From assembly GCA_031288595.1 (NCBI GenBank), contig JAITRB010000004.1, positions 1 through 32,000 on the forward strand: a stretch of DNA of 32,000 nt, given 5' to 3'. This DNA is from Puniceicoccales bacterium. GTDB taxonomy: Bacteria; Verrucomicrobiota; Verrucomicrobiia; Opitutales; JAIRLG01. The position numbers and the translations under genes were made by a program. Shown one piece after another: positions 1,393 to 30,068 of this stretch; the first letter of the stretch is position 1, and every line of letters starts with the position of its first letter. Under the pieces are notes generated by a model, which did not search any database, had not been told where the DNA came from, and saw only the letters and a list, made by a program, of their open reading frames with translations.

Positions 1393-1488
1393 CTCGCTGT
1401 CTTTGAATCCCTTCGGGATTGCCCGCGCAGCGGGCTACAAGAGGGGGACGAAAAATATTTTTCGTCCCCCTCTTGCAAAGACAGCGAG
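1393..1488 (+). repeat. Cloverleaf palindromic element copy R1 (closing stem plus 3 hairpins)
   Basis: 13-bp closing stem CTCGCTGTCTTTG / CAAAGACAGCGAG. H1 AATCCC-TTC-GGGATT (1406-1420); H2 GCCCGC-GCA-GCGGGC (1421-1435); H3 is a perfect 36-nt palindrome AAGAGGGGGACGAAAAATATTTTTCGTCCCCCTCTT (1439-1474). Lies between the GspE-like gene and comM. Confidence 0.9.
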
Positions 1489-1638
1489 GAAGCCTCCCAT
1501 GGACAAGAGCCTCCGCATTCCCTTTCCTCCTTTCACCTCTTCATTCCCCTCACCCTCAGGGGGAAATCTCGGGATGCCTGGAAAATCTTTCGCTTTTTTA
1601 TTGACGCGACCTGCTTCCATGCTGTAGCCTGCGGTCCC

Positions 1639-3186
1639 ATGTTGGCAGTGGTGAGTTCGGGTGCGCTGCGGGGCGTGGATGCCTTTCCGGTGGAAGTGGA
1701 GGTCAGCACGGGCGAGCGAGGCGAGCCGCGCCTGGTGCTGGTTGGCCTTCCGGACTCGGCGGTGAAAGAGTCCCAGAATCGCGTCTTCTCCGCCCTGATG
1801 ACGACCCAATTCACCGCTCCCCGAACGCACACGACGGTCAACCTCTCTCCCGGGGAGTTGCGGAAGGAGGGGGCGCTCTACGACTTGCCCATCGCCCTGG
1901 GCATTCTGCAGAGTACCCGTCAGACGGACTTCAATTCTCTATCCGACTACATTGTCGCCGGCGAGCTGAGCCTTTCGGGGCGTCTCCTGCCGATTCGGGG
2001 TAGCGTAGCCCTGGCTCTTCTGGCCAGAAAGCACAGAAAATCGCTTCTCCTGCCAAGAGCATCGGCGGAAGAGGCCGCGCTGGTGCGGGAGGTGAAGGTC
2101 TTCGCCGTCGATGATCTCTGCGATGCTGTGAACTTCCTCCACCGTCCGGAACGGGTTCCTACGACGGCCTCTTGGGCGGAGGATACGGAGCCGGTTTACG
2201 ACGTCGATTTTTCGGAAGTGCAGGGCCAGGATGCCCTGAAGCGGGCGATCGAAGTGGCGGTTTCCGGCGGACATAATCTGCTGATGCTGGGTTCACCCGG
2301 TTCCGGAAAGTCCATGCTGGCCCAGCGCATCCCGACAGTCATGCCGAAGTCCAGTTTCGAGGAATATCTGGAATGCCTGAACATCTACTCGGCATCGGGA
2401 ACGCTCATGGACGAGTACCAGCGCAGGTACCAGCGTCCCTTCCGCTCTCCACACCATACCCTGAGCGATGTGGGGCTATTAGGAGGTGGGAGGCTGCCAG
2501 GCCCGGGCGAGGTCTCTCTAGCCCACACAGGTGTCCTGTTTTTGGACGAGCTGCCGGAGTTTCGCCGCTCGACGCTGGAGGTTCTGCGCCAGCCGCTGGA
2601 GGATGGGAAGGTTTTGATCTCCCGAAGCGCGGGCAAGATCCAGCTGCCGGCCTCCTTCATGCTGGTGGCTGCCATGAATCCCTGTCCCTGTGGCTATCTC
2701 ATGGATCCACGACACGACTGCCATTGTACGCCGCTACAGATCCAGCGCTACCGCTCGAAGATCAGCGGGCCGCTCTTGGACCGCATCGATATCCACATGG
2801 ACGTCGTTGGGGTGAGCTCAGCGGAACTGAGAACTCAGAGGCCATTGGAATCCTCGGCCCAAATTCGCCGACGGGTCCAGCGGACGCGAGAGATCCAGCG
2901 GCAGCGATTCGCCGCCACCGGCCTATCGACCCCGGTCAATGCCCGTATGGGGATCAATCAGATCCGCGCCTATGCGCCGTTGGATCCGGAGTCGGAAAAG
3001 ATTCTCGCCATGGCCGCCGATCGCCTGGGCCTTTCGGCCCGGGCCTACTACCGCGTGATCAGGGTTTCGCGCACCCTCGCCGACATGGCTGAGATGCCCA
3101 ATATTTTGCCGGAACATATTTTGGAAGCGCTGCAGTACCGCTCACGGGAGGTGTTGCCTCCCTGTTTCACCAAGGTGGCCATCTGA
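1639..3186 (+). CDS. comM: Mg-chelatase-like AAA+ protein ComM/YifB
   Basis: Track ORF 1384..3186. Homology-like sequence starts at MLAVVSSGALRGVDAFPVEVEV (ATG 1639), the typical YifB N-terminus. Walker A GSPGSGKS, GVLFLDELPEF, and the C-terminal ARAYYRVIRVSRTLADM helix. The upstream extension reads through repeat R1. Confidence 0.9.
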   Translation: MLAVVSSGALRGVDAFPVEVEVSTGERGEPRLVLVGLPDSAVKESQNRVFSALMTTQFTAPRTHTTVNLSPGELRKEGALYDLPIALGILQSTRQTDFNSLSDYIVAGELSLSGRLLPIRGSVALALLARKHRKSLLLPRASAEEAALVREVKVFAVDDLCDAVNFLHRPERVPTTASWAEDTEPVYDVDFSEVQGQDALKRAIEVAVSGGHNLLMLGSPGSGKSMLAQRIPTVMPKSSFEEYLECLNIYSASGTLMDEYQRRYQRPFRSPHHTLSDVGLLGGGRLPGPGEVSLAHTGVLFLDELPEFRRSTLEVLRQPLEDGKVLISRSAGKIQLPASFMLVAAMNPCPCGYLMDPRHDCHCTPLQIQRYRSKISGPLLDRIDIHMDVVGVSSAELRTQRPLESSAQIRRRVQRTREIQRQRFAATGLSTPVNARMGINQIRAYAPLDPESEKILAMAADRLGLSARAYYRVIRVSRTLADMAEMPNILPEHILEALQYRSREVLPPCFTKVAI

Positions 3187-3275
3187 GGCCCATGAAAGCC
3201 ATGGGCATGGAGTGGAGCATGGCTTCCTTCGAGGATCACCGGTAGCACTGGATTCCGAGGGCCCCTGGGTGCTCG

Positions 3276-3378
3276 CTTCGCTGTCTTTGCGCGCCGCCCC
3301 CTTTTTTTAAGAAAAAAAGGAGGGCAGCGCGTGGCCCGCGGAGCGGGCCGATTCCTCTGGAATCCAAAGACAGCGAAG
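3276..3378 (-). repeat. Cloverleaf palindromic element copy R2 (inverted orientation)
   Basis: 14-bp closing stem CTTCGCTGTCTTTG / CAAAGACAGCGAAG. On the + strand the order is H3 (3290-3331, imperfect, T7/A7 core), H2 GGCCCGC-GGA-GCGGGCC (3333-3349), H1 GATTCC-TCT-GGAATC (3350-3364). Confidence 0.9.
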
Positions 3379-3485
3379 AGGACCAGCAGGACAGCAGCGA
3401 CTTCTTCCACAGGATCCCCTTTCCCCGAGAGCATTTTGAGCAAAAACCCTTGCGCCGGGGATATTTTTGAAAGAATCGCAGATCG

Positions 3486-5255
3486 ATGGTGGATATCTTC
3501 CATGTGGCTTCCTGGATCAGCGCCCGTCTGGGAGCGGCCTTCTCGCGCCTGGAGATCGAAGCGGCGGAAGAATCAGCCAGGGTGCAGCCGGCGGATCCCC
3601 GCTTCGGCGACTTTCAGGCCAATGGGCTACTGGTTCTGGCGAAGAAGAGAGAGCTCGCGCCACGTCCACTGGCGGAAAGGTTGTTACAGGTGCTGATGGC
3701 TGACGAGGCATGGCGCGAGGCCGGTATCGAAGCCTTTGTCTCCGGTCCGGGCTTCCTCACTTTCCGCCTTTCGGACGGCTTTCTCCTGCGCTGGCTGAAC
3801 ACCTACCGCGATGAGACCTCGCTCCAGCTCGGTGCCGGCCAGAGATTTCTGGGCAGGAAGATCGTCGTCGATTATTCCTCGCCTAACACGGCCAAGCAGA
3901 TGCACGTGGGGCACCTGCGCTCCATGATCATCGGCGAATCGATCCAGCGCCTACTGCGCTTCTGCGGAGCCGAAGTGATTCGGGACAACCATATCGGCGA
4001 CTGGGGAACGATTTTCGGCATTTTGATCCTGATGATCCGCAGGAATTCCCTCGATTGGGAGCGGAGTCCAACCGAGGTATTGGAAAGCCTGGAGGCGCTC
4101 TATCGGGAAGGGGTGGCCCGGACGAAAGGGGATGAGGCCTTCCTGGAGGAGGCTCGTCGGGAGCTCGTCCGCCTGCAGCGGGGCGAGCCGGAAAATGTGG
4201 CCCTGTGGAAGAGGATCAACGAGCTTTCCTACAGGGCTTTTCAGGAGATCTACGACGAGATGGATGTGCATTTCGACTATGTTCTGGGGGAATCCTTCTA
4301 CCGCGAGCAGGTCGACCGCGTCTGTCGGGAACTCGAAACCACTGGCCTGGCCGAAGTCAGCGACGGAGCACTGGTCGTCTGGCACAGGACCCATCCCCGT
4401 TTCGGCGAACAGCCCTTCCTGGTGCGCAAGAAGGACGGGGCCTCGAACTACGCGACGACGGACCTGGCCGCGCTGCTCTATCGGGTCGAGCATTTCCACG
4501 CGGACGAGATCATCTACGTGACCGATGGGCGCCAGCAGGACCATTTTCAGCAGCTCTTCCTCACGGCCGAGGTATGGTTTTCCAGGAAGAGCTACCCCTT
4601 GCCGGCCCTGAAACACGTCTGGTTCGGGACGATTCTGGGCGAGGATGGCAAGGCCATCCGGACGCGCTCCGGCGAATCGCTCCGCCTGCGCGAGCTGATG
4701 GAGGAAGGGAAGTCGCGGGCCTACGACATTGTCGCGGAGAAAAGCCCCTCCCTGACGGAAGAGGAAAAGAGGCAGATCGCGCGCACCGTCGGCCTAGGGG
4801 CGATTCGCTACGCCGACCTGTCCCAAAACCGCACGCACGATTACGTCTTTTCCTGGCCGAAGCTGCTGTCCTTCGACGGCAACACGGCACCCTATCTCCT
4901 CTATGCCCTGGCGAGAATCCGCTCGGTCTTTCGGAAATTACCCATTTCGGCGAGAGGGAAAATTGAGGCCATCCTCATCCCCTCGCTGGCAACAGCCGAG
5001 GAGCGCGCGCTGGCCAAAAAGCTCGTTTTCTTCCCCTATGCATTGGCACAGGCCATCGAGGATTTAAGGCCGCACTTCCTCTGCACCTATCTCTACGAGT
5101 TGTCCGGAGTGTTTTCCGCCTTCTACAAGGCGAATCGCGTCCTGGGAGAAGCGGAAGAGATCGAGAAGCGGCGCCTGGGCTTGTGCGCCCGAACGGCCCT
5201 GATCCTCGAGCAGGGGCTCCATCTGCTGGGCCTCGCGACCCTGGAGCAGATGTAG
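3486..5255 (+). CDS. argS: Arginine--tRNA ligase
   Basis: 589-aa ORF. Class I HIGH motif (SPNTAKQMHVGHLRS), an anticodon-binding C-terminal domain, and a terminal Met (..ATLEQM) as in ArgS proteins. Confidence 0.93.
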   Translation: MVDIFHVASWISARLGAAFSRLEIEAAEESARVQPADPRFGDFQANGLLVLAKKRELAPRPLAERLLQVLMADEAWREAGIEAFVSGPGFLTFRLSDGFLLRWLNTYRDETSLQLGAGQRFLGRKIVVDYSSPNTAKQMHVGHLRSMIIGESIQRLLRFCGAEVIRDNHIGDWGTIFGILILMIRRNSLDWERSPTEVLESLEALYREGVARTKGDEAFLEEARRELVRLQRGEPENVALWKRINELSYRAFQEIYDEMDVHFDYVLGESFYREQVDRVCRELETTGLAEVSDGALVVWHRTHPRFGEQPFLVRKKDGASNYATTDLAALLYRVEHFHADEIIYVTDGRQQDHFQQLFLTAEVWFSRKSYPLPALKHVWFGTILGEDGKAIRTRSGESLRLRELMEEGKSRAYDIVAEKSPSLTEEEKRQIARTVGLGAIRYADLSQNRTHDYVFSWPKLLSFDGNTAPYLLYALARIRSVFRKLPISARGKIEAILIPSLATAEERALAKKLVFFPYALAQAIEDLRPHFLCTYLYELSGVFSAFYKANRVLGEAEEIEKRRLGLCARTALILEQGLHLLGLATLEQM

Positions 5256-5317
5256 AGAACTGGCATGAAAGGCAGAAATCTCCCGAAGAGAATTCCTGCA
5301 AGAGGGCAGTGGAAATA

Positions 5318-6244
5318 ATGGGAATTCTGGCCTTACCGGAGGCGGTGGAGAGATTTTTAGGCTTTCTGACCCTGGAAAAGGGCGCATCAGAACATACGCT
5401 GTCAGCCTACCAGTCAGACCTCAAGCAGTGGGAGCAATCCGTTCTGGACAGGCACCCGGAGGCGAAGAGAGACGTGTCGGTCATCGGCATTGAAGACATT
5501 CAGCCCTGGCTCATCTCCCTCCATAACTCCGCCTATCGGCCGAAATCCATCGCGAGAAAAATCGCGGCCCTGCGCTCGTTTTTCAAGTATCTAGCCCAGA
5601 GAGACGAGATTCAGAAGAACCCCATGGAGGAGATCCACTTGCCCCAAACCGGCCGTTCTCTGCCGGATGTGCTGACGCCTGGGGAGATGGAGCGCTTGCT
5701 CCAGGCGCCTCCACGCGAGCTCCCCCAGGGCCTCAGGGATCGAGCCATGCTGGAATTGGCCTACGGCAGCGGCCTGCGGGTATCGGAACTGTGCAAGCTG
5801 CCGCTACAGGCACTGGACCTGGAAAACAGCTTTGTTCGGGTCTACGGCAAGGGGAGCAAGGAACGCATCGTGCCCATCGGCCGCTGCGCGCTGGCGGCGT
5901 TGAAGGAATACCTCGAACATGGTCGTCCGGTCCTGGTCTCGCGGAAAACGGACAGCTCCGTCTTTCTCAGCCGACGGGGATCTGCCCTGTCGCGGAAGAG
6001 CTTTTGGTCCTGTGTCCAAAACTACGCCAAATCCCTCGGCTTACGCTCGCCGGTAAACCCGCATACGCTGCGCCACTCGTTTGCGACTCATCTGCTGGAA
6101 AATGGGGCCGATCTGCGCTTTATCCAGGAGATGCTGGGGCACAAGGACATTTCGACGACGCAGATCTATACCCATGTCGGGACCAGGCGACTTCGGGAAC
6201 AGTACGAAAAGTTTCATCCCCACTCCAGCCGAGCAGCATCCTGA
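5318..6244 (+). CDS. xerD: Site-specific tyrosine recombinase XerD
   Basis: Track ORF 5183..6244. The conserved part starts at MGILALPEAVERFLGFLTLEKGASEHTLSAYQSDL (ATG 5318). RDRAMLELAYGSGLRVSEL, GKGSKERIVP, and HTLRHSFATHLLENGADLRFIQEMLGHKDISTTQIYTHV with the catalytic Tyr. Closely XerD-like in both the N- and C-terminal blocks. Confidence 0.88.
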   Translation: MGILALPEAVERFLGFLTLEKGASEHTLSAYQSDLKQWEQSVLDRHPEAKRDVSVIGIEDIQPWLISLHNSAYRPKSIARKIAALRSFFKYLAQRDEIQKNPMEEIHLPQTGRSLPDVLTPGEMERLLQAPPRELPQGLRDRAMLELAYGSGLRVSELCKLPLQALDLENSFVRVYGKGSKERIVPIGRCALAALKEYLEHGRPVLVSRKTDSSVFLSRRGSALSRKSFWSCVQNYAKSLGLRSPVNPHTLRHSFATHLLENGADLRFIQEMLGHKDISTTQIYTHVGTRRLREQYEKFHPHSSRAAS

Positions 6245-6341
6245 AACCTCCCCGGCTCTCCCCCCGAAGGGTTTGCGGTTCTGCCGAGACCCTACAATCC
6301 TCCCCAACGCTCTTCGAGAGACTGAGCCTGAGGAGATTTTT

Positions 6342-6415
6342 TGGTGCGGGCAGAGGGATTCGAACCCTCGATTCAAGCTTGGGAAGCTCGCGTATTGCCC
6401 CTATACTATGCCCGC
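6342..6415 (-). tRNA. tRNA-Gly (anticodon CCC)
   Basis: The minus strand reads GCGGGCA-TA-GTAT-AGGGGCA-ATAC-G-CGAGC-TTCCCAA-GCTTG-AATC-GAGGG-TTCGAAT-CCCTC-TGCCCGC-A-CCA. This is a full 74-nt cloverleaf with a T-loop TTCGAAT and an encoded CCA. Confidence 0.93.
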
Positions 6416-6540
6416 CATTGGGAGAAGAGGACAGCCAATGCGGGAGGGAAATCAACGGAAAAGTTTTCGGGATAAAGGAGAAAAGTCGCTCGGAAGAAAA
6501 ATCTTTCCATGGGCCTTCGCAATGCTTCACTGACCCCGCC

Positions 6541-7014
6541 ATGGATGGTTTTATACTCGTACCGGACTTGGCCCAGAAGGCGGTAGTCATCGACTGGCCA
6601 CTGTCCCGCGTTCTTCTACAGTCTTCCCGAGACTTCCCCTGGATTCTGCTCGTTCCGCGGCTACCAGGCATTTCCCAAATCCACGAACTGGCCGAAAAGG
6701 AGCAGGGACAACTGGTGCGGGAAATTTCGTCAGCGAGCCGCTTGATGCTCACGCATTTTCCCTGCGACCGCGTCAATGTGGCTGCCATGGGCAACAAGGT
6801 AGCGCAACTGCATGTCCATATCGTCTGCCGTGACCAGGAAGATCCGTATTGGCCAGAAGTTATCTGGCACCAAGCGTATATCCCGCTGGAGGCGGAGGCT
6901 CTGGAGCAGCGCCGCCAAGAGCTATCGGCTCTCTTCCGCCTCGAGAATTGGAAAAAATCCACTCAGGCTGAATGTGGAGATCCTGTCTTCGCTGGCTTTC
7001 CAGGGCCCCAATGA
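6541..7014 (+). CDS. HIT-family nucleotide hydrolase/transferase
   Basis: Last 157 aa of track ORF 5791..7014, starting at ATG 6541 (MDGFILVPDL..). Histidine triad QLHVHIV followed by DPYWPEVIW. The final 8 codons plus the stop lie inside repeat R6. Confidence 0.8.
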   Translation: MDGFILVPDLAQKAVVIDWPLSRVLLQSSRDFPWILLVPRLPGISQIHELAEKEQGQLVREISSASRLMLTHFPCDRVNVAAMGNKVAQLHVHIVCRDQEDPYWPEVIWHQAYIPLEAEALEQRRQELSALFRLENWKKSTQAECGDPVFAGFPGPQ

Positions 7015-7083
7015 TAGAAAATCATTGGGACCCTGGGGCCCGCTGCGCGGGCCCGATTTCTTCGAAATCGAAAGCCGGCGAAG
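6987..7083 (-). repeat. Cloverleaf palindromic element copy R6 (inverted orientation; overlaps the HIT 3' end)
   Basis: 13-bp closing stem CTTCGCTGGCTTT / AAAGCCGGCGAAG (one G:T). H3 CAGGGCCCCAATGAT-AGAAA-ATCATTGGGACCCTG (7001-7035, one C:A); H2 GGGCCCGC-TGC-GCGGGCCC (7036-7054); H1 GATTTC-TTC-GAAATC (7055-7069). Confidence 0.9.
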
Positions 7084-7194
7084 AAACAAAACGTTTCCAA
7101 TCCTCAAACCCATCCCCAGCGCTCGCATCGGGAAATGCGACTCCAAGACGAGCGGAGAAATGCCCGAGGGAAATTTCTCCTATCCAGAATTGAG

Positions 7195-7593
7195 ATGAGA
7201 CCGAAACCGGGCAAGATGAGGCTGAAGTCGAAATGCCATTGGGCCCATGCAGGCTGCATGAAGCTCATCCAGATTTACCGTGAGCACCTTTCCCCTCTGA
7301 AGAAGCTTTGCCTGGGTGCCCAAGCAGCCTGCCGCTTCCATCCGACCTGTTCGGCCTACGCCTTGGAAGCCCTTCGAACCTATTCCCTTCCACGGGCCCT
7401 GGGCTTAAGCCTCAGACGCCTCCTGCGCTGCCATCCCTGGAGTCGATCGAAGATCCACGACCCAGTCCCTCTGCCCAGAAACGGAGCCCGATGCCCAGAA
7501 TTCCCAAGCCAAGGCTCAGCACTTGTCCACGGGAAAAGGGCCCCCAAAGCGGAGCATCCGGCTCGCGAAAAATTTCCACAAAAATCCTCATGA
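7195..7593 (+). CDS. yidD: Membrane protein insertion efficiency factor YidD
   Basis: LIQIYREHLSPL...CRFHPTCSAYALEAL...LRRLLRCHPWS..HDPVP is the YidD signature. The start is uncertain (ATG at 7195, 7216 or 7258). An unusually long non-conserved C-terminal tail runs to the stop at 7591-7593. Confidence 0.75.
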   Translation: MRPKPGKMRLKSKCHWAHAGCMKLIQIYREHLSPLKKLCLGAQAACRFHPTCSAYALEALRTYSLPRALGLSLRRLLRCHPWSRSKIHDPVPLPRNGARCPEFPSQGSALVHGKRAPKAEHPAREKFPQKSS

Positions 7594-9231: not shown

Positions 9232-9295
9232 GGGGCAAAGGTGGAAGAAGATGGGAGAGGAGCAAGGCTGATCTTTGGAGGGAGGGGCGGATGCT

Positions 9296-9400
9296 TTGGA
9301 GCTGGCTTTCGATTTCGGAGAAATCGGGCCCGCGCTGCGGGCCGTCCCCTGGAGGGAAAGGACGACGTCCTTTCCCTCCAGGGGACAAAGCCAGCTCCAA
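9296..9400 (+). repeat. Cloverleaf palindromic element copy R5
   Basis: 14-bp closing stem TTGGAGCTGGCTTT / AAAGCCAGCTCCAA. H1 GATTTC-GGA-GAAATC (9311-9325); H2 GGCCCGC-GCT-GCGGGCC (9327-9343); H3 has a 19-bp stem TCCCCTGGAGGGAAAGGAC-GAC-GTCCTTTCCCTCCAGGGGA (9345-9385). Lies between divergent dapA and recA. Confidence 0.9.
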
Positions 9401-11630: not shown

Positions 11631-11738
11631 CGCGCAACGGCCCCCGTCAGAAGGACAGCGAGGCTTCGCTGTCCTTCCGACGGGGCCTTCCTGCTCCGCA
11701 GGAAGGCCTCCTTTGCTTTGCAAAGGGGCCGTTGCGCG
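11631..11738 (-). repeat. Cloverleaf palindromic element copy R8 (subfamily with R9)
   Basis: Closing stem of 12-14 bp, CGCGCAACGGCC(CC) / (GG)GGCCGTTGCGCG. Three internal hairpins: 11645-11682 (core GAAGGACAGCGA / TCGCTGTCCTTC), 11684-11708 (GGCCTTCCTGC-TCC-GCAGGAAGGCC), 11710-11726 (CCTTTGC-TTT-GCAAAGG). Confidence 0.85.
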
Positions 11739-15495: not shown

Positions 15496-15604
15496 TTTGG
15501 CGCCTTTGGAGGCCTTTGGGCTCCGGCCCGCGGCGCGGGCCGCGGCCGAGGGAGAGGGAGAGCTGTCCCAGCTCTCCCTCTCCCTCGGGCGCAAAGGCGC
15601 CAAA
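15496..15604 (+). repeat. Cloverleaf palindromic element copy R7
   Basis: 13-bp closing stem TTTGGCGCCTTTG / CAAAGGCGCCAAA. H1 GAGGCC-TTT-GGGCTC (15509-15523, one mismatch); H2 GGCCCGC-GGC-GCGGGCC (15525-15541); H3 has a 20-bp stem CCGAGGGAGAGGGAGAGCTG-TCC-CAGCTCTCCCTCTCCCTCGG (15546-15588). Lies between the divergent lptD-like gene and recD2. Confidence 0.9.
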
Positions 15605-17890: not shown

Positions 17891-18965
17891 GTCCCAGAAG
17901 GGCGTAGACAGCGATGAGGTTAGAACCTCCATAGCTGAGGAAGGGGAGGGAAATGCCCTTGGTCGGGAAGCAGGCGGTGACGACGCCCATATTGAGGATG
18001 GACTGGTAAACGATCATGAAAATGGTCCCATAACCCAGGATGCGGGCGAAGAGGGATTCCTGTCGCTGCAGACCGGACAAAACGCTCAGGAAAAGGAGAG
18101 AGAAGAGGCCGATGATGAGCATTCCGCCGATGCAGCCCAGCTCTTCGACCAGTACGGCATAGATGAAATCCGTATGGGCCTCAGGTAGATAGGTGAGCTG
18201 CTGCCGCCCATGGCCGATGCCCCGTCCCCAGGGCCCACCGGAGACGAAGGCGAGGATGGCTTGCCACAACTGGTAGGAGCCATCGCTGCGGTTCCCCTCC
18301 AGGTCGAGAAAGGAGATGATGCGCTTGAGCCGAGGAGGGTTTCGCCACACGAGCAGGGTGAAGAGGAGCAGGAAAGCAGCAGCCGATAGGAGCAGGTGCC
18401 TGATTTTGGCTCCGCCCAGAAAGAGCAGCGTTACGGCTACGGCCAGGAGAAGGACGGCTGTGCCGTAGTCCGGTTCGAGCAGAACAAGACCAGCCCAGAA
18501 CGAACAGAAGAGAATGGGCTTAAAAAATCCCTTCCAGAAACTATCCATCCATTCCGCATTTTTCTCGATGTAGTCCGCGAGCCAGAGGACGAGGGCGATC
18601 TTGCTCAATTCCGATACCTGAATGCTGACGAAGCAGTGAATCCAGCGCCGCGAGCCGTTGACTTTTGTCCCTAAGCCTGGGATCAGCACCGCCACTAAAA
18701 GGCCGAGCGAAATCCAGACCCAGAAGGGGAGGGATTTCCTCAGCTTTTCCACTGGGATGAGGGCCGTTAGGCAGAAGGCATTCAGGGCCAAAACTAACCA
18801 GGCGAGCTGCTTGAGGGCGTAATTCTCCGACTTGAGAAAGGCAAGGCTAGCGCTGGAGAGGATGACGAAGCCCATGACGTTCAGGAGCAGCGCCAGCAGA
18901 ATGCAGAAGCATTCCCTTTTCCTCTTTCTAAAAAAAAGGCCGCTCGAGAGAAATTCGAAGTTCAT
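17802..18965 (-). CDS. ftsW: SEDS-family peptidoglycan glycosyltransferase FtsW
   Basis: 387-aa polytopic ORF with SEDS motifs (QLSELSKI-like VSELSKIALVLW, EPDYGTAV, LPEAHTDFIYAVL.EELG, TKGISLPFLSYGGS). Called FtsW rather than RodA because it sits in a murD-containing operon. Confidence 0.85.
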   Translation of the reverse strand: MNFEFLSSGLFFRKRKRECFCILLALLLNVMGFVILSSASLAFLKSENYALKQLAWLVLALNAFCLTALIPVEKLRKSLPFWVWISLGLLVAVLIPGLGTKVNGSRRWIHCFVSIQVSELSKIALVLWLADYIEKNAEWMDSFWKGFFKPILFCSFWAGLVLLEPDYGTAVLLLAVAVTLLFLGGAKIRHLLLSAAAFLLLFTLLVWRNPPRLKRIISFLDLEGNRSDGSYQLWQAILAFVSGGPWGRGIGHGRQQLTYLPEAHTDFIYAVLVEELGCIGGMLIIGLFSLLFLSVLSGLQRQESLFARILGYGTIFMIVYQSILNMGVVTACFPTKGISLPFLSYGGSNLIAVYALLGLMTHALRTESLSSEGDPAGPSSAGHSLDF

Positions 18966-21346: not shown

Positions 21347-21513
21347 GTCAGCGGGGCAGCTTTCTTTCTATCCTTTAGCCGAGAAAAGGCAAATTTCAAA
21401 GAAGGAGGAAGCCCCGGATTTTTAGAAAAATGCCCCTCGGGACTCTCACAGTTCAGGGGAAAATGTTTGGGAGGATGGAAGGCGGCCATTGGCATCCGTC
21501 CTCGCATGGGCCT

Positions 21514-22170: not shown

Positions 22171-22282
22171 GCGCGATGACCCCTTTGCGAAGCAAAGGGG
22201 AAGACAGGCATCTCGCCGGGGCGAGATGCCTGTCTTCCGGTGGGAGCCCGAATGACCTTCGGGCTCCCACCGGTCATCGCGC
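22171..22282 (+). repeat. Cloverleaf palindromic element copy R9 (subfamily with R8)
   Basis: 11-bp closing stem GCGCGATGACC / GGTCATCGCGC. Hairpins: 22182-22198 (CCTTTGC-GAA-GCAAAGG), 22200-22237 (18-bp arms GAAGACAGGCATCTCGCC / GGCGAGATGCCTGTCTTC), 22239-22271 (GGTGGGAGCCCGAA-TGACC-TTCGGGCTCCCACC). Lies between the divergent Nudix gene and accA. Confidence 0.85.
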
Positions 22283-23374: not shown

Positions 23375-23394
23375 GGAGATCAGGAATTTTCTTG

Positions 23395-23493
23395 TTTTCG
23401 CTGTCTTTGGATTCCGAAGGAATTGCCCGCTGCGCGGGCTACGAGGAGGCGCTGGCGCAAGCGCCAGCACCTCCTCACCAAAGACAGCGAAAA
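23395..23493 (+). repeat. Cloverleaf palindromic element copy R3
   Basis: 16-bp closing stem TTTTCGCTGTCTTTGG / CCAAAGACAGCGAAAA. H1 ATTCC-GAA-GGAAT (23411-23423); H2 GCCCGC-TGC-GCGGGC (23425-23439); H3 GAGGAGGCGCTGGCGC-AA-GCGCCAGCACCTCCTC (23443-23476, one C:A). Lies between convergent accA and the small ORF downstream of rbfA. Confidence 0.9.
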
Positions 23494-23574
23494 ATGATGC
23501 TGCGCCCTCGGGAACGGTCCACCATGGGGCTCGTCGCGAAGACCGAAGGACCCAAGAATACGGAGTTTTCTCCC

Positions 23575-23724: not shown

Positions 23725-24098
23725 GTCTGTGGACTGGAGTTGAGGTTCCCATCTACCTGATCTTCAGCGGCGATTTCCGCCAATAGGGAGGAGACCCGCA
23801 GCTCCTCTTGATGGGAATCGTCGATGGCAAACTGCAGTTCCGGTGAGAATTTGAGCACGACCTCCCGACTGAGCCGCCGTCGCAGCTCCGATTTCTTACA
23901 CCGCAGCCAGCGCCACACCTTCTTCTGAGCATTTTCATCGCCCAGGAGGCTGACATAGATATTCACGTGGCGCAGGTCATTGGAACTCACGACTCGGGTC
24001 AGGGTAATGGCCATCGCTTCCTCGCGGTAATACTTCCTCAAAATGCCGCCAAGCGCGGACTGCAGGAGAGCATTGACCCGTTCCACCCGGAAGTGCAT
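23721..24098 (-). CDS. rbfA: Ribosome-binding factor A
   Basis: 125-aa ORF. RVERVNALLQSALGGIL....ITLTRVVSSNDLRHVNIYVS matches RbfA. It sits immediately downstream of infB, the canonical position. Confidence 0.9.
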   Translation of the reverse strand: MHFRVERVNALLQSALGGILRKYYREEAMAITLTRVVSSNDLRHVNIYVSLLGDENAQKKVWRWLRCKKSELRRRLSREVVLKFSPELQFAIDDSHQEELRVSSLLAEIAAEDQVDGNLNSSPQT

Positions 24099-24103
24099 GA
24101 GGC

Positions 24104-26656
24104 TTAAAGCGAAGGCCTCCGTTCGACGAGCTCATAACACTTGATCTCGTCATGGATTTCGAAGGCGGAAAATCCCTGAACTTGTATGCCGCACTCGAGT
24201 CCGGCCCGCAGCTCGGCTAAGTCTTCCTTGAGATGCTTGAGGGAAGCCATACGCCCCTCAAAAATCGTCTCCCGCCCGCGCTGGATGCGGAGGGGCTTGT
24301 CCCTCAAAATCCGGCCATCGGTTACCATGCAGCCGGCCACGACGTATTTGGAGAATTGAAAGACCTGGCGCACCTGGGCGGAACCTAGGTAATTTTCACT
24401 CCACTCCGGCTCCAGAAGGCCGACCATCGCTCCGCGAACCTGCTCCACCAATTCATAAATAATCTCGTGCCGGATTACTGGCACACCGAGATTTTTTACG
24501 AGCGCTCCGGCACCGGAATCGTAGGCAACGTTGAAGCCCAGGAGGGTAGCACCGGAGGAATGCGCCCGTTCGACATCATTCTTGCCGATATGACCGACGG
24601 ATTGATCGAGTACCTCGAGTCGCACCTTGTTGCTGCGAATCGTGGCCAGGCACAGATTTACCGCCTCGAGACTCCCCTGTACATCGGCCTTGATGAGGAT
24701 CCGGAGCACTTTCTCCTGGGACTCCGTGCCCAGGGAGGCGAGGGCATCCTGCCGGCTCTTTCCATGGGCAGCGGCGGACACTTCTTCCCGCGATTGCTTT
24801 TCGACCAAAGCACTTTCCTCAGCAGCTTGGCGGGCACGCTTCTCGTCCTTCTCCGCCCGGGCGATACTTCCGACCTCGGGAAGCGCCGACCAGCCCGTGA
24901 TGCGTACCGGCGTGGAAGGGGACGCTGAGCGGATGGCCTGGCCGTGGTCGTCGAAGAGAGAACGCACGCGGCCGTACTGCGAGCCGCAGACCAGGGCGGT
25001 GCCGACAGACAGGGTCCCTTCCCGGACGATGGCCGTCGCGACCGCGCCACAACCGGGATCGATTTGGGATTCGATGATAACCGCTTCGGCCTTGGCTTTT
25101 GGATTCGCCTTCAGCTCCAGCATTTCCGCCTGAAGGAGCAGCAGTTCCAGAAGCTCCTGAATGTGGGTTTTCTGGGCAGCGGAAATGCCGAGGCAGAGGG
25201 TTTCCCCTCCCCAATCTTCCGGTGCGATGCCGCGCTGCTGCATCTGCTGCTTGACCCGCTCGACATTGGCCGACTTCAGATCGACTTTGTTGATCGCTAC
25301 GACGACAGGCACGCCGGCCTTCTGGGCACATTTCAGCGCCTCGTCGGTCTGAGGCATGAAACCATCATCGGCGGCCACAACGAGAATGGCGATGTCGGTC
25401 ACATCCGCTCCTCGTTGGCGCATGTTCGCAAAGGCGGCATGGCCCGGAGTATCGAGAAAGGTGATTTTCTTCCCCTGCACTTCGACCTGGTAGGCGGCGA
25501 TGTGCTGCGTGATACCACCGGCTTCGCCGGAGGCGACATTCGCCTGGCGAATCGCATCTAACAGGGTCGTCTTACCGTGGTCGACGTGACCCAACACGCA
25601 GACGATGGGCGGACGGGTCTCCCGTTTGGCGGAAATATCGACGGCAGGGCTCTTCTCCTTCTTCTCAGCCTGACGGACATCGCCTTCTTCGCCGCGCCGG
25701 CGGATTTCCAGCTGAAATCCGTACTTTTGGGCCATCGTCACCGCTACGTCCTCCGCGATGGACTGGTTCATGGAGACGAATAAGCCTATATGCATCAATT
25801 CAGAGATGAGCTGGAAGGGCTTGAGTCCAATGGCCAATGCGAACTCGTGGACGATGATGGGAACCCTGATCTTCAGAAGCTTGAGCGGCTTTCCCGACTC
25901 AATCCCTTTTTTTTCTGGCGATGGGTGAAGTTTCGGAGGAGGTAAGGGGGCCGGACTTTTATATGCCCTCGGCGGCAGCGGCGGAAGATGGGGAGGCATG
26001 GGGGAGCTTGGCCGCGAGGAGTTCGCCACAGCGGATAAAGGGGAGACTTTGGGACTGGACTCCCTGTTTACGTCTCTCCCGGATTCCTTCCCGGGCTGGT
26101 GGATGAAGGGCTTTAGCCCGTTCGAAAAGGAGACCATGGATTCAAGAGCAGAGGGCTGCTTCCTCTCGAAGTGAAAGAGCGGCGGCCGTGGTGCCGGCTT
26201 TCCGCGATTGGCCGGAGCCCCCGTCAGCGGAGTGCTTAGAGCTGAAACTGCTCCGGTGGAGGACGCAGCCGAGGCTGTCGCCGTCCCAAGAGCCGAAAAT
26301 GGGGGCGTCTTCGTCGCGGGAGGCATACTGTTCTCGGCAGGCGAAAGGGCTCCTATGCCGGAACCGCGGGGCGCAGGGGTCCCTTCGGTTTCTGTTTTCG
26401 GTTCTTCTCTCTGGGCTTTAGCCGGAAGGGGAGTCTGATGAGGCTGGGACTTCAAGGTGCCTGGAGTCCCCTGCCCATCGGGGCATTCCGGCTTAGAAGC
26501 TCCTGCTGCAAGTGTTTTCAAAAAAGCCTCGGCCTCGGCCTCGGAGATGGAGCTGGAGGCACTCTGGACGGACAATCCATGTGCCTGTAGAAGGACGATC
26601 AGTTCCTTATTGGTCTTGCCTACTCGCTTGGATAATTGATGGACCCTAACGCTCAT
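24104..26656 (-). CDS. infB: Translation initiation factor IF-2
   Basis: Track ORF 24104..26692 (TTG). [24 protein letters not shown] (ATG 26656) looks like the IF-2 N-terminal domain. A Pro/Ala/Ser-rich linker follows. G domain [23 protein letters not shown]. Confidence 0.93.
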
Positions 26657-26743
26657 GCCTTCCTCGAATGATGAAAACATCGGCGATGGCAATGACTTCC
26701 GTTACCAGGAGCCGAAACCAGAACTGTCCTCCCATTGCATGGA

Positions 26744-28006
26744 TTACACGGCTGTCTGGGCGCGGAAGGCCTGCACGGAAGAGAGGATGCTCTCGGCCTC
26801 TTCGGCTTCGAACCCGGAGGCTTGCAGATCCTCGGCAGTGACTCCTTCGAAGACATCGAGACCCGTGATGCCGATGGCGACGAGTTTCTGGGCCATTTCA
26901 TCCGAAATGCCCGGTATGCCGTTGAGACCCTCGGTGGCCTTTTGGATGCGCTGAGACAGGGCTATATCCGCCTGCGGCGCTGCCCGGTTGATGCTCAACT
27001 TCCAGTTCATGAGCTTGGAGGTGAGCTTGGCGTTGAGTCCGCGCTTCCCTATGGCCGTGGCGAGATCATCCTCACTGACCTCGAAACAGAGGCGGCGATC
27101 CCGCTCATCGATCTGGATGTTCCGGGGAATGGCTGGGCGAATGGCCTCGATTAGAAATTCGACCGGATCTGGGTAGTAGCGCAGGATGTCGATCTTTTCA
27201 TTGCCGAGCTCCTTGCAGATGCTGCGGATGCGGACACCCCGAGCACCGATGCAGGCCCCAACAGGGTCGACATTCAGCTCCCGACTCTCGACGGCGACCT
27301 TCGTCCGGTAGCCAGCTTCACGGGCAAGGCTGTGAACGGCAATAGTTCCATCGGCGATTTCCGAGATTTCCAGCTCGAGCAGTTTGTGGACGAACTGGTC
27401 GCAGGAGCGGCTGAGGATGATCTCGGGGCCGTTAGGTGTGGATTCGATGCGCAGGAGGAGGCACCGAACCGGATCACCTGGGCGATAATCCTCCCCCGGG
27501 GTGCGCTCGCGGTGGGGCATGATGCCCTCGGCCTTCCCAAGGTCGATGAAGAGATGACCTCGGTCTTCCGCCCGCACGATGCCGGTGACAAATTTCCCCA
27601 CCTGGTTCCTGAAATCCTCGTAGATGCGTCCTTTTTCGAAGTGGCGGACGCTCTGGTTGATGGCCTGGAGCGTGCTCTGGGCGGCGATGCGCCCCAGGGC
27701 GGATGGCGGTATTTCCTTCTCAACGGTAGTCCCCAGTTGCGCCTGGGGATCGAGTTCCTGAGCCTTGAGAAGGTGCATCTGGGACGCGGGATCAGCGACG
27801 GAATCCACCACTTCGTAGATAGCCCAGGCCTGGAGATGCCCCGTTTTGGGATGGATATGGACGCGCACGTCACGGCCGAAGTGGATGCTCTTGAGCGCAG
27901 CGCTGCGAATGGCTTCCTGAATTGCCTCGATCATGTCGCTCCGGGCAATGCCCTTCTCCTTTTCCATGTACTCCAACACGGCGATGATCTCGGTTCCACT
28001 ATTCAT
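26744..28006 (-). CDS. nusA: Transcription termination/antitermination factor NusA
   Basis: Track ORF 26744..28075. ATG 28006 gives MNSGTEIIAVLEYMEKEKGIARSDMIEAIQEAI, a typical NusA N-terminus. S1 and KH regions (DPVGACIGARGVRI) and a C-terminal HhH repeat. Confidence 0.92.
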   Translation of the reverse strand: MNSGTEIIAVLEYMEKEKGIARSDMIEAIQEAIRSAALKSIHFGRDVRVHIHPKTGHLQAWAIYEVVDSVADPASQMHLLKAQELDPQAQLGTTVEKEIPPSALGRIAAQSTLQAINQSVRHFEKGRIYEDFRNQVGKFVTGIVRAEDRGHLFIDLGKAEGIMPHRERTPGEDYRPGDPVRCLLLRIESTPNGPEIILSRSCDQFVHKLLELEISEIADGTIAVHSLAREAGYRTKVAVESRELNVDPVGACIGARGVRIRSICKELGNEKIDILRYYPDPVEFLIEAIRPAIPRNIQIDERDRRLCFEVSEDDLATAIGKRGLNAKLTSKLMNWKLSINRAAPQADIALSQRIQKATEGLNGIPGISDEMAQKLVAIGITGLDVFEGVTAEDLQASGFEAEEAESILSSVQAFRAQTAV

Positions 28007-28343
28007 ACGACACAGTCCTCGGCGGAAAATTTTCGCTACACCAAGCCCTTCCGGAAGGGTAAAATCAACGCCCATTTGTCAAGGGAGAATGCGCCCAGCA
28101 CCTCATCCCAGAGAAATAGAGCTGAAGGGGTTCTTGAGTGATGTGATTGAGGCTGCTTGACCTATTTTGAAATGGACAGCCATTCCGCTCTGTGGGCGAG
28201 CCCTTCCAGCCAGGGAGACCGGAGACGCGTTCCCTGGAGAGAAGAGAGAAATTCCTCCCTCCTGATTCCCCAAGGCACTGAGGCGCTCGCGAAAAAAGAT
28301 TTGCCAGTTTTAAAATACAGAATAAATGTGGCGGGAGAGCAAA

Positions 28344-29699
28344 ATGAGCCCTCAAGATTTTTCCTCACCCCAGAAGGCTTCCATGAGCCCTAGGACGACA
28401 CCCGCCAGGGACTTGAAGGACGATGTCCGCCAGACCTTTCTCTACTGGCGTTCCCGCATTTTGTATGCCCTGATCCTCGGCTACACCACGTTCTACATCG
28501 TGCGGCAGAATTTTCAAGTAGCGGCCCCTTCGATGCTGCACGAGCTGGGCTATACCCGCTGTCAGATTGGCTGGGCCTTCAGCTCCTTCGCCCTCATCTA
28601 CGGCCTCGGGAAATTCATCAGCGGTGTGATCTGTGACCGCACGAGTGCCCGCTATTTCATGGTCATCGGCCTCCTGGGAGCCTCTCTCTGCAGCCTGCTC
28701 ATCGGCTGCAGCCATTCCATCACCCTGCTGGCGCTATTCTACGCACTCAATGGGGTCTTCCAGTCGATGGGTTGGCCCCCCGTCGCCCGCCTGATGGTCC
28801 ACTGGTACTCACCTCGAGACTTGGGGACGCACTGGGGAATCGTCAATGCCTCCCATCAGGTCGGCAGTGTCATCATCCTGCTCGGAGGTTCTTGGCTACT
28901 CATCCACTGGGGTTGGCGGTCGGTCTTCATCCTTCCGGCGGGGCTGGCTCTTCTCATCTCGGCTGTTCTCTTCCAACGCCTGCGCGACATTCCCGAATCC
29001 ATGGGATTGCCCTCCATCGAGGAGATGGAGGGTCTAGATCCTAGCTCCGGCCATGAGGAAGGCGAGAGCGTGACCCTGCGCGAGATTCTCCTGGAGCACA
29101 TCCTGCCCAATCCCTCGCTGTGGTACGTCTGCTGTGCCAATTTCTTCCTCTATATCGTCCGCATGGGATTCTTCAACTGGGCACCCACCTTTCTGCAGGA
29201 GGCACGAGGTGCTTCGGTCATGATGTCCGGAGTTCAGTCCATGGGGTTTGAGCTGATGGGGGCTCTGGGAGGGGTCTTTGCCGGCTGGGTTTCGGACAAG
29301 TTCCTGCAGGGGAAACGGAACCGCGCCTGTGTCTATTTCACGTCAGCACTGATCGTCGTCCTGCTCCTCTTCTGGTGGCTGCCGTTACGGTCAACGGCCC
29401 TGAATACGCTATTCCTCTTCATCCTAGGCTTTCTGGTCTACGGCCCCCAGATGCTGGCGGGTTGCGCTGGAGCGGAGTTCGGCTCCAAACGGGCAGCCGC
29501 CGCCGGCAATGGACTGACCGGTCTTTTCGGTTACCTCGGGGCTGCGTTCTCCGGTTGGGGAATTGGAAAAATCGTCGATGTCTGGGGATGGAATGCGATG
29601 ATCCTCTTCTTTTCGCTCTGCACTGCTATCAGCATGGGATTCTTCATGCTCAACGGCCAACAGGCGAGGAAGAAACTCAGAGTAGCTCAAGGGAAATAG
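28344..29699 (+). CDS. MFS organophosphate:phosphate antiporter (GlpT/UhpC family)
   Basis: Track ORF 28326..29699. 12-TM MFS protein; the N-terminal block ILGYTTFYIVRQNFQVAAP....GYT..QIGWAFSSFALIYGLGKFISGVICDRTSAR parallels GlpT/UhpC (..YYLVRKNFALAMP..G.S..DLG.A.S.....Y..SKF..G..SDR.N.R). Confidence 0.8.
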   Translation: MSPQDFSSPQKASMSPRTTPARDLKDDVRQTFLYWRSRILYALILGYTTFYIVRQNFQVAAPSMLHELGYTRCQIGWAFSSFALIYGLGKFISGVICDRTSARYFMVIGLLGASLCSLLIGCSHSITLLALFYALNGVFQSMGWPPVARLMVHWYSPRDLGTHWGIVNASHQVGSVIILLGGSWLLIHWGWRSVFILPAGLALLISAVLFQRLRDIPESMGLPSIEEMEGLDPSSGHEEGESVTLREILLEHILPNPSLWYVCCANFFLYIVRMGFFNWAPTFLQEARGASVMMSGVQSMGFELMGALGGVFAGWVSDKFLQGKRNRACVYFTSALIVVLLLFWWLPLRSTALNTLFLFILGFLVYGPQMLAGCAGAEFGSKRAAAAGNGLTGLFGYLGAAFSGWGIGKIVDVWGWNAMILFFSLCTAISMGFFMLNGQQARKKLRVAQGK

Positions 29700-29773
29700 A
29701 AGGGTCTCCCCTCTGTCCCTATCCCCAAAAAAATACCTTTCCCCTACCAAATCCTTTTCTGCCAGGGGGGACC

Positions 29774-29850
29774 TGGCGAGGTGGACGGGACTTGAACCCG
29801 CGACCTTCGGCGTGACAAGCCGACGCTCTAGCCAACTGAGCTACCACCCC
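29774..29850 (-). tRNA. tRNA-Asp (anticodon GTC)
   Basis: The minus strand reads GGGGTGG-TA-GCTC-AGTTGGCTA-GAGC-G-TCGGC-TTGTCAC-GCCGA-AGGTC-GCGGG-TTCAAGT-CCCGT-CCACCTC-G-CCA. 77 nt with an encoded CCA. Confidence 0.92.
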
Positions 29851-29859
29851 CTTGGGGAA

Positions 29860-29887
29860 AATCTGCGCGCCCTCCGATTGAAGTCAA
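29860..29887 (-). promoter_or_regulatory. Candidate sigma70-type promoter for tRNA-Asp
   Basis: The minus strand reads TTGACT (29887-29882), a 16-nt spacer, then CAGATT (29865-29860). This places a start a few nt upstream of the mature tRNA 5' end (29850). The -10 matches the consensus only at A2, A4 and T6. Confidence 0.25.
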
Positions 29888-29970
29888 GGGACAAAATCGC
29901 TGGCCGAAAGAAGGACAAAATCACTGATGGAAAAAAAGTTATCCGGGCGGAAGGAGGATGTATCGGGAAC

Positions 29971-30068
29971 CTGCGCTGTCTTTGCAGGTGCGAAATGGCC
30001 TGAAAGGCCATTTCGCACCTGGGGCTCGCGGAGCGAGCTGAGCCCTGTGGGCTCCAAAGACAGCGCAG
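29971..30068 (-). repeat. Cloverleaf palindromic element copy R4 (inverted orientation)
   Basis: 14-bp closing stem CTGCGCTGTCTTTG / CAAAGACAGCGCAG. H3 AGGTGCGAAATGGCC-TGAAA-GGCCATTTCGCACCT (29986-30020); H2 GCTCGC-GGA-GCGAGC (30024-30038); H1 GAGCCC-TGT-GGGCTC (30040-30054). Lies between the clpC stop and tRNA-Asp. Confidence 0.9.

Follow-up and report, generated by a model that had tools for sequence, protein, structure and literature searches.

The described systems closest to the repeats reported here are the repetitive extragenic palindromes (REPs) of Enterobacteria and Pseudomonas, along with the related bacterial interspersed mosaic elements (BIMEs) and REPINs, the Rickettsia palindromic elements (RPEs), and the bacterial miniature inverted-repeat transposable elements (MITEs). 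A REP is a single imperfect palindrome of 20–40 nt, and a REPIN consists of two inverted REPs that make up one long hairpin. RPEs are palindromic repeats of ~100–150 nt in an obligate intracellular bacterium, where they lie both between genes and in frame within them; bacterial MITEs (Correia/NEMIS, ERIC/IRU, RUP, and BOX) are marked by target-site duplications and by termini that match an autonomous insertion sequence (IS). Here we analyze a stretch of 32,000 nt, positions 1–32,000 of contig JAITRB010000004.1 (hereafter the window), which holds nine elements, R1 to R9 in window order, each built of a closing stem around three hairpins. The unit conserved among these elements and their counterparts in related genomes is the fold, a closing stem of ~13 bp plus three hairpins in a near-perfect four-way junction, and not the sequence. 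We consider it reasonably probable that they form a lineage-specific, structure-defined superfamily of selfish or mobile palindromic repeats that operate at the DNA level, functionally nearest to REPs/REPINs, RPEs, and MITEs, and that this superfamily has spread through the intergenic DNA of a Puniceicoccales clade (Verrucomicrobiota) living intracellularly in termite guts.

Like REPs, BIMEs, and REPINs, the elements are short, high-copy, extragenic palindromes found in both orientations with no target-site duplication; they also fall into subfamilies within a genome, and their hairpins could form on single-stranded DNA. Unlike them, they measure 77–131 nt across families and combine a closing stem with three perfect hairpins. 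GTAG-tagged REPs occur in Opitutus terrae, of the same class Opitutia (PMC3733652). Among our elements the GTAG tag was found in 0 of 121, CGTC lies within 12 nt of the 5′ end in 7 of 121, and no cognate REP-associated tyrosine transposase (RAYT) was found in the sampled DNA, which comprises partial genomes searched with approximate queries. The likeness to RPEs lies in an in-frame insertion that keeps the reading frame open, here a single case of 40 codons in mutL; compared by description, RPEs are simple hairpins of one sequence superfamily of Rickettsiales, whereas the present elements are four-way junctions of several unrelated families in Verrucomicrobiota. With MITEs they share small size, non-coding sequence, a dispersed and mostly intergenic distribution, terminal inverted repeats (here the closing-stem arms), and presence/absence polymorphism. 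In contrast to MITEs, they lack target-site duplications and conserve the fold instead of the termini, and no related autonomous IS with matching termini was found in the window or in the sampled related loci of partial genomes. The superfamily consequently falls outside REPs/REPINs, RPEs, and MITEs as defined: it has no tag, is not a single hairpin, shows no target-site duplication, and is accompanied by no transposase found in the partial data.

Three more distant systems also deserve comparison. The inverted terminal repeat of parvoviruses (adeno-associated virus) is a T-shaped hairpin with two internal arms, located at the ends of a linear replicon and targeted by the HUH nuclease Rep. It is a structural and mechanistic analogue only, sharing a long closing stem, small GC-rich perfect palindromes, 3-nt loops, flip/flop loops, and single-stranded folding; our elements have three internal arms, hundreds of chromosomal copies, and no Rep/HUH gene found, and we do not claim membership. 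The double-hairpin elements and GC clusters of fungal mitochondria and the t-elements of plant mitochondria are mobile and GC-rich, the t-elements being cloverleaf-like processing signals. They resemble the present repeats as multi-hairpin, mobile, GC-rich, intergenic sequences of reduced genomes, and differ in being organellar and in having two hairpins or true tRNA-like loops, as opposed to 3-nt loops and no tRNA call here. Integron attC sites, finally, are imperfect hairpins that contain R/L boxes and extrahelical bases and occur in cassette arrays beside intI; an attC identity was rejected, given that our helices are 98.7% Watson–Crick, that the copies stand singly between housekeeping genes, and that the only integrase-family gene is a syntenic XerC-like one. 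We found no description of cloverleaf or four-way-junction repeats, or of such repeats in Verrucomicrobia, in the literature accessible to search. Likewise, no Rfam 15 family was detected at gathering thresholds or at E ≤ 5 in the window, nor at gathering thresholds in seven related loci, the output consisting of tRNAs and sub-threshold miRNA-hairpin noise on the third hairpin, and nothing else. These negatives support the view, expressed when the elements were first noticed, that no described bacterial repeat class has this topology.

Nine four-way junctions in the long intergenic gaps

Folding with RNA and with DNA parameters gave, for 9/9 intervals, a minimum free energy (MFE) structure of one closing stem enclosing exactly three hairpins (H1, H2, and H3), in agreement with the original prediction of a four-helix architecture at nine loci. 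The closing stems of these copies are 10–15 bp long, the junction linkers 0–3 nt, and ~400 of 405 pairs are Watson–Crick. Under DNA parameters, z-scores range from −9.4 to −14.7 across the nine copies (200 dinucleotide shuffles each, none of which folds equally well), and the MFE structure accounts for 33–63% of the ensemble; the energies of the RNA folds are −68 to −97 kcal/mol. An independent gene map recovered 11 intergenic gaps of at least 150 bp, 9 of them containing an element, as had been proposed; the two without one are 21347–21513 and 28076–28325. Searching the window with the family A covariance model described below, with filters off, gave no tenth copy. The occurrence of both orientations and of all three gene contexts was likewise confirmed, with four elements between tandem genes (R1, R2, R3, and R9), two between convergent genes (R5 and R8), and three between divergent genes (R4, R6, and R7). 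In total the elements occupy 927 nt, which is 2.9% of the window and, by our estimate, roughly a quarter of its intergenic DNA.

Seven copies (R1–R4, R6, R8, and R9) are related in sequence and constitute family A, with a closing stem ..GCYGKCTTTS, H1 GATTCC-NNN-GGAATC, and H2 G(G)CCCGC-NNN-GCGGGC(C). The initial grouping, in which R1 to R7 were thought to share H1 and H2, does not hold, since R5 and R7 form a separate family B. R1 (1393–1488; H1-first on the plus strand; z = −12.7; covariance model score 86.8 bits), between a pilT-like gene and comM, consists of a closing stem at 1393–1405/1476–1488, H1 at 1406–1420 (AATCCC-TTC-GGGATT), H2 at 1421–1435 (GCCCGC-GCA-GCGGGC), and H3 at 1438–1475. 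Between comM and argS, R2 (3276–3378; H1-first on the minus strand; z = −11.1; 78.5 bits) reads on the plus strand as closing arm, H3, H2 (GGCCCGC-GGA-GCGGGCC), H1 (GATTCC-TCT-GGAATC), and closing arm. R3 (6987–7083; H1-first on the minus strand; z = −9.4; 83.2 bits) separates a HIT-family gene from yidD. R4 (9296–9400; plus; z = −13.5; 77.6 bits), whose H3 (GYCYGRAGG..AAGGAC) is that of the largest subfamily, is located between the divergent genes dapA and recA, and R6 (15496–15604; plus; z = −9.9; 72.7 bits), with an imperfect H1 and an H3 of ~23 bp, between the divergent genes lptD and recD2. R8 (23395–23493; plus; z = −9.6; 82.9 bits) is found in the convergent accA/rbfA gap, 21 nt past the accA stop. 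R9 (29971–30068; minus; z = −13.4; 91.1 bits), with the compensated H2 GCTCGC-TCC-GCGAGC, lies in tandem context between the clp ATPase gene, whose stop codon it follows by 37 nt, and tRNA-Asp.

In family B, the closing stem GCGCGAYGRCC and the H1 CCTTTGC-NAA-GCAAAGG combine the topology of family A with unrelated sequence. R5 (11631–11738; minus; z = −12.3), in the convergent gap between a sufD-like and a hypothetical gene, has the closing stem CGCGCAACGGCC, H1 CCTTTGC-AAA-GCAAAGG, and two long hairpins, H3 being at 11642–11685, and scores 24.9 bits under the family A model. R7 (22171–22282; plus; z = −14.7), in the divergent nudix/accA gap, has the closing stem GCGCGATGACC, H1 CCTTTGC-GAA-GCAAAGG, an H2 of 18 bp (22199–22238), and an H3 of 14–16 bp, with no whole-element match to the family A model.

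One of these elements reaches into a reading frame. The TGA stop of the HIT-family open reading frame (ORF) of the window (7012–7014) falls within an H3 arm of R3, and the ORF has no stop of its own upstream; the ortholog in the related genome bin38 (L047, around 5506–5490, reverse strand) enters a family B element and ends there. Lacking a stop ahead of the repeat, this ORF is therefore provided by the repeats with a stop codon and a variable C-terminal tail.

Distribution of family A

A 27-nt degenerate pattern covering H1 and H2 of family A matched the window four times against 0.00 matches expected from shuffles, and in 185,579 species-representative genomes it matched 48 loci, all within three metagenome-assembled genomes (MAGs): Pcl387_bin38 (JAITKE01; hereafter bin38), Pcl387_bin136 (JAITIW01; bin136), and Ct408_bin121 (JAIRRP01). 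No match was found in viral contigs, and the R4 element had no blastn match in plasmid and phage collections. Three pattern matches in metagenome contigs of the Joint Genome Institute (JGI) were rejected as chance, none being supported by a covariance model match. The loci taken from related genomes carry L-numbers below (L004, L015, L047, etc.). Because the comparative data are fragmented MAGs and the loci were picked for containing the element, copy densities in the relatives are biased upward, the unbiased density being that of the window itself, with 9 copies in 32 kb; copy counts also rest on fragmented assemblies because MAG contigs often break at these repeats (L017, for instance, starts inside one).

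The ArgRS of the window shares 90% identity with its counterpart in a MAG that NCBI lists as Puniceicoccales bacterium (Opitutia, Verrucomicrobiota). All three element-sharing MAGs fall within the accession range JAIRJQ–JAITXW, which was submitted for 48 gut metagenomes by a study on the symbionts of termite gut flagellates (PMC11257099). The ORFs of bin38, at ~60% G+C, include a TLC ATP/ADP transporter and four CesT-family proteins (type III secretion chaperones), and because these are hallmarks of an energy-parasitic intracellular lifestyle, they suggest that the bin38 lineage lives in this way.

For a more sensitive survey, a covariance model of family A was used in which pairs were encoded for the closing stem, H1, and H2 only, with H3 left unpaired. 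This revealed 116 distinct further copies in 295 kb of the three MAGs, family copies scoring 50–95 bits, and 114 of the 116 fold with exactly three hairpins inside a closing stem, the remaining two being cut by contig ends. Because H3 was not modelled, its presence throughout is an independent confirmation of the architecture. The closing stem measures 12–14 bp (its arms have a median of 14 bp once extended into the flanks), H1 6–7 bp and H2 6–8 bp, both with triloops, H3 9–26 bp (median 17 bp), and the junction linkers 0–2 nt. Syntenic loci of farther relatives, with ArgRS 71–73% identical, also hold copies of families A and B. With more than 120 additional copies in related genomes, the nine loci belong to a family that extends well beyond the window, on which the original prediction had staked its claim.

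Unrelated sequence families with one architecture

A model-free scan, requiring a 9-bp inverted repeat with arms 60–140 nt apart followed by folding, retrieved 104 stable three-hairpin elements, among them R5 and R7; 85 belong to family A, and the other 19 are mostly without sequence kinship to it. Family C, with a 77-nt unit (GGGGCCCCGGGAC...), has six copies (L011:3524–3600, L028:2375–2451, L036:6060–6152, L037:291–367, L037:2662–2738, and L039:4709–4787), and family D, of ~86 nt (TCCGGCGATCC...AAAACTTAAAAGTTTTG), has four (L004:3509–3594, L011:691–779, L017:3984–4070, and L024:5351–5458). A fifth sequence family is represented by a single copy, L055:6318–6409, in a relative with 61% ArgRS identity. 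Families C and D and the L055 type have zero copies in the window. That at least four families unrelated in sequence have one architecture in common is what is most unusual about the system, and it had escaped the initial inspection.

The scan returned only five stable two-branch and three four-branch candidates, mostly degenerate or flank-extended three-branch members. With stable two- and four-branch forms essentially absent, we rejected the idea that the junction arises incidentally as hairpins insert into one another at random. Applied to 50 kb of E. coli K-12, a genome with REPs/BIMEs, to 21.8 kb from a free-living relative within Verrucomicrobia, and to three unrelated contigs, the same scan yielded no element. 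Between families, the H3 stem of R5 (GGAAGGACAGCGA/TCGCTGTCCTTCC) resembles the closing stem of family A (CAAAGACAGCGA/TCGCTGTCTTTG), and GCTCGC-NNN-GCGAGC is both the H2 of R9 and the H1 of family C; judged by such resemblances, families seem to share or exchange hairpin modules.

Base pairing, covariation, and loops

Of 4,832 pairs counted, 4,767 (98.7%) are Watson–Crick and ~1.3% are G-U. In an alignment of 112 family A copies, which was fitted to the covariance model, 96.1% of cells pair and 24 of the 27 modelled pairs show two-sided changes, with one-sided (wobble) intermediates nearly absent. The covariation score was 0.371 against 0.111 for shuffles, none of 500 reaching the observed value, and at most 0.12 when partners were slid. 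RNAalifold applied to an unfitted MAFFT alignment of the largest subfamily again returned the four-way junction, with 28 of 40 pairs covarying, including pairs of H3.

C-G-closed triloops make up 88% of H1 and H2 loops, and ~75% of these loops are GNA or its complement TNC, both forms occurring on the same strand at similar frequency. In one orthologous pair the loop is exactly inverted, the H2 loop of R3 being GCA and that of L047:5215–5311 TGC. C-G-closed GNA triloops are exceptionally stable in DNA, as known from the d(GCGAAGC) mini-hairpin literature, which makes their prevalence a pointer to a DNA-level fold, suggestive rather than proof.

Gain, loss, and nesting of copies

Four contigs of bin38 show synteny with the window, at 81–89% nucleotide identity (~87%), and within this time-scale copies were gained, lost, replaced, and nested. 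Orthologous copies of R1 to R4 keep the same H3, with compensatory changes: in the R1 ortholog (L004:5803–5903) H3 is retained and one pair of H1 has changed in a compensatory way from A-T to G-C, and alongside the R2 ortholog (L004:3663–3768) the relative carries a second element. H3 does not vary freely, being subfamily-specific and inherited in orthologous copies. At other sites the occupant has changed. The dapA/recA gap, where R4 lies, holds a family A copy in four genomes, representing three subfamilies and both orientations, and the R5 site has a family A copy in bin38 and a family B copy in opposite orientation in Ct408_bin121 (L052:18325–18420). R7 is missing from the orthologous bin38 gap (L015:7673–7699), and bin38 has extra copies in the pilT/comM, comM/argS, Mur-ligase-like/nudix, and ftsW/LysM gaps. 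Between close relatives the number of copies per gap varies from 0 to 3, and many gaps are filled in one genome and empty in the other, so that the comparison of orthologous gaps proposed at the outset does distinguish filled from empty sites between the window and bin38.

Subfamilies share H3, and some of their near-identical members sit on different contigs. R9 has non-orthologous counterparts, ~87–89% identical, at L015:6576–6673 and L004:133–230. The latter is part of a nested element (L004:98–303), in which an R3-type copy carries the R9-type copy (133–230) precisely at the apical loop of its H3. In L047 (~2700–2880, reverse strand), a family B copy bears a 35-nt insertion in its H3 loop. 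From their positions in these sequences, hairpin loops may be preferred targets.

Target-site duplications are absent, in that the longest direct repeats between 60-nt flanks are distributed as in mismatched flank pairs; direct repeats of 17 and 12 bp at two bin38 insertions were rejected as such duplications, not being general. This flank comparison and the gene map bear out the original observation that the window contains neither target-site duplications nor a transposase.

A different repeat was encountered at one of the insertions. In the window, the gene of a LysM protein and ftsW overlap by ATGA (18962–18965; 4 nt), which suggests translational coupling. In bin38 the two are split by a 415-bp insertion (L015:3661–4075) composed of a repeat here called X, a four-way-junction element, and a second X, bounded by the 12-nt direct repeat CATCCCCTAGRG. 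Repeat X is a dispersed, intergenic sequence of ~135–150 bp with 72–88% identity between copies, no consistent orientation to genes, and no Rfam match; it occurs at L015:3661–3810 and 3966–4083 and in ~20 places in L004, L007, L009–L012, L019, L020, L027, L028, L030, L038, L042, L046, and L048, and was not found in the window.

An in-frame copy within mutL

A single intragenic case was found among ~130 copies. The family A copy L025:1205–1304 of bin38 lies inside mutL (L025:577–2619), where it separates the ATPase part of the N-terminal domain from the transducer part. A 40-residue insertion after GQIL is common to the MutL proteins of bin38 and a JGI relative with 90% identity (L058:4861–6873), whereas four MutL orthologs (~50–81% identity depending on measure) are without it, the empty site being seen at the protein level only. 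The 120 inserted nucleotides comprise the element together with 21 nt of its 5′ end duplicated in tandem (PALAAEG twice). Comparison of the two genomes showed two compensatory double substitutions and one single substitution in H3, which change the amino acids; pairing is thus evidently kept by something besides selection at the protein level. Since the copy lies within an intact ORF, an efficient terminator or RNA-processing site would not be tolerable there. Open frames cross elements in 37 cases, of which nine were inspected and only mutL is a real gene; the other eight were rejected as spurious GC-rich ORFs or upstream extensions.

Candidate roles of the elements

Three roles had been put forward for the elements: a structured RNA module, a protein-binding DNA site, and a non-autonomous mobile element. 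The last, as non-autonomous mobile or selfish DNA, is now favoured because of gain and loss between genomes, the nested copy, the insertion in mutL, and the near-identical copies within subfamilies, and the structured RNA module is disfavoured. As mobile DNA, the element would act and persist at the DNA level, and its fold would probably arise in extruded or single-stranded DNA, a setting that makes C-G-closed GNA triloops especially stable. A trans-acting, structure-recognizing enzyme would copy it to new sites with no target duplication, an HUH/RAYT-like or junction-specific nuclease or recombinase being one possibility. The complementarity of the arms and the coexistence of loops with their reverse complements would stem partly from selection on the fold and partly from templated correction between arms, which could proceed through quasipalindrome template switching or cruciform processing. 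Effects on transcripts, such as 3′-end protection, would then be orientation-independent side effects. More tentatively, and as something we would rather doubt than assert, the elements may represent a new class of bacterial mobile DNA that is defined by its shape, with at least four to five unrelated families, one single-strand four-way junction, and an implied machinery of fold recognition and templated correction.

Several observations weigh against mobile DNA. The filled and empty intergenic sites have diverged flanks, and no transposition event with clean boundaries at the nucleotide level was seen. The same gaps, such as dapA/recA, are filled in four genomes, and this recurrent occupancy could reflect selection for presence, that is, a host function, instead of an insertion hot spot. 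An all-against-all BLASTP of 247 ORFs in ~330 kb of partial genomes disclosed no multi-copy ORF family, and tblastn with approximate IS608/IS200/RAYT queries gave no match in ~365 kb of fragmented MAGs; a Pfam scan of 148 short ORFs, for which the 25 commonest of 98 families were listed, is compatible with a single transposase gene. Orientation is unbiased relative to local GC skew and to the gene-strand majority, and the missing GC-skew bias argues against a strictly lagging-strand, IS608-like mechanism. On the H1-first strand, G-T pairs (67) outnumber 1 × 1 A-C mismatches (22), a count that is method-biased, and the energy difference between this strand and the other is marginal (p = 0.054).

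An RNA-level alternative, which we judge unlikely, would make the elements cis-acting modules that block 3′–5′ exonucleases, pause or terminate the polymerase, or serve as tRNA-like processing punctuation in place of scarce canonical terminators. It draws on the absence of any excess of canonical terminators in the window, where hairpin-plus-U-tract sites number 19 against 14.8–14.9 expected in each half, and on the position of six of the nine copies downstream of at least one gene, with R8 and R9 only 21 and 37 nt after stops. The extremely stable RNA folds and the near-perfect palindromy, which would let the elements work equally in both orientations, fit it as well, as do the filling of the same gaps in several genomes and the weak excess of G-T over A-C. 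Yet neither orientation nor energy follows transcription: between tandem genes the H1-first strand is sense in 32 cases and antisense in 22, and the sense strand is no better folded, its mean ΔG differing from that of the antisense strand by −0.11 kcal/mol. Occupancy per gap reaches 0.41 between tandem genes, 0.53 between convergent ones, and 0.39 between divergent ones, so that promoter-only divergent gaps are filled as often as tandem ones. On either strand, G and T prevail in the 5′ flank and A and C in the 3′ flank (T 14%), and this T-rich-to-A-rich order on both strands is the opposite of a terminator tail; lacking a 3′ U-tract as well, the elements were rejected as intrinsic terminators. 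A tRNA or tRNA-like nature was rejected on account of the 3-nt loops and the ~13-bp closing stem, ARAGORN and Rfam RF00005 calling only the two true tRNAs of the window. Scarce G-U pairs with two-sided changes and no wobble intermediates are atypical of RNA families, and GNA/TNC triloops on either strand are equally at odds with an RNA module. A terminator or processing role is disfavoured because of the missing orientation and energy bias, the proportional occupancy of divergent gaps, the scarcity of G-U, and the copy within the intact, conserved mutL ORF of two genomes.

Quite improbable, in our view, is maintenance by selection as host-domesticated structural sites in DNA, where extruded junctions would bind HU/IHF, gyrase, or RuvA-like proteins, or absorb negative supercoils. 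E. coli BIMEs bind gyrase, IHF, and Pol I, and by analogy the present elements might be protein-binding sites too. The occupation of 9 of 11 long gaps would suit such a role, and the dapA/recA, HIT/yidD, and sufD/hypothetical-gene gaps stay filled across genomes despite replacement of the subfamily or family, which suggests that presence outweighs sequence. Strict Watson–Crick pairing is independent of orientation, and the junction, perfect or with 1–2 unpaired nt, is Holliday-junction-like. However, close relatives have 0–3 copies per gap with filled/empty differences, one copy is inside a coding sequence, the nested copies look like unregulated spread, and no candidate binding protein was identified. 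Moreover, because the closing-stem arms are ~70 nt apart, extrusion from the duplex would be kinetically unfavourable unless the three inner palindromes extrude first. RNA-module or host-DNA-site roles may exist as secondary or domesticated functions, and what speaks most for them is that the same gaps are occupied recurrently.

That the elements are no family at all, just unrelated GC-rich hairpins or terminators alike by chance or through assembly artefact, is almost certainly wrong: nothing positive speaks for it beyond the caveat of contigs breaking at repeats, and it is contradicted by the pattern counts (4 against 0.00 expected; 48 loci in three MAGs of 185,579 species genomes), by z-scores of −9 to −15, model scores of 50–95 bits, and covariation above all 500 shuffles, and by orthologous copies in independent assemblies.

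For REPs, RPEs, and MITEs it has been a puzzle whether they are selfish, domesticated, or both, and which feature the mobilizing enzyme recognizes. In the mobile superfamily favoured here, the recognizable unit is the whole four-way junction common to unrelated families, which separates shape from sequence more cleanly than in any REP system. This opens the questions whether a junction-specific enzyme mobilizes single-stranded DNA, whether apparent compensatory evolution can come from templated arm correction instead of RNA-level selection, and how an intracellular symbiont whose genome is shrinking can bear repeats amounting to about a quarter of the intergenic DNA of the window, and a copy in mutL. 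Strong covariation and very negative folding z-scores such as these would mislead RNA-discovery pipelines into calling a structured noncoding RNA.

Other features of the window

The gene complement of the window, at ~59% G+C, is one of ordinary housekeeping genes. Its protein genes are a pilT-like ATPase, comM, argS, an XerC-like recombinase, a HIT-family gene, yidD, lgt, dapA, recA, sufD-like, miaA, lptD, recD2, ftsW, a LysM protein, a Mur-ligase-like gene, a nudix hydrolase, accA, rbfA, infB, nusA, an MFS transporter, and a Clp ATPase, and its tRNAs are tRNA-Gly(CCC) and tRNA-Asp(GTC). The XerC-like tyrosine recombinase gene (5183–6415) adjoins tRNA-Gly(CCC); because the argS–xerC arrangement is syntenic in three relatives (L052, L054, and L055), it is probably a housekeeping recombinase and not part of an integrated element. 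Canonical sigma-70-like promoters are not above shuffles, with 3 and 2 in the two halves of the window against 4.3 expected. Downstream of R4, the recA start codon is preceded at ~11 nt by a TTGTCA-N17-TAGAAC motif, which is conserved in bin38.

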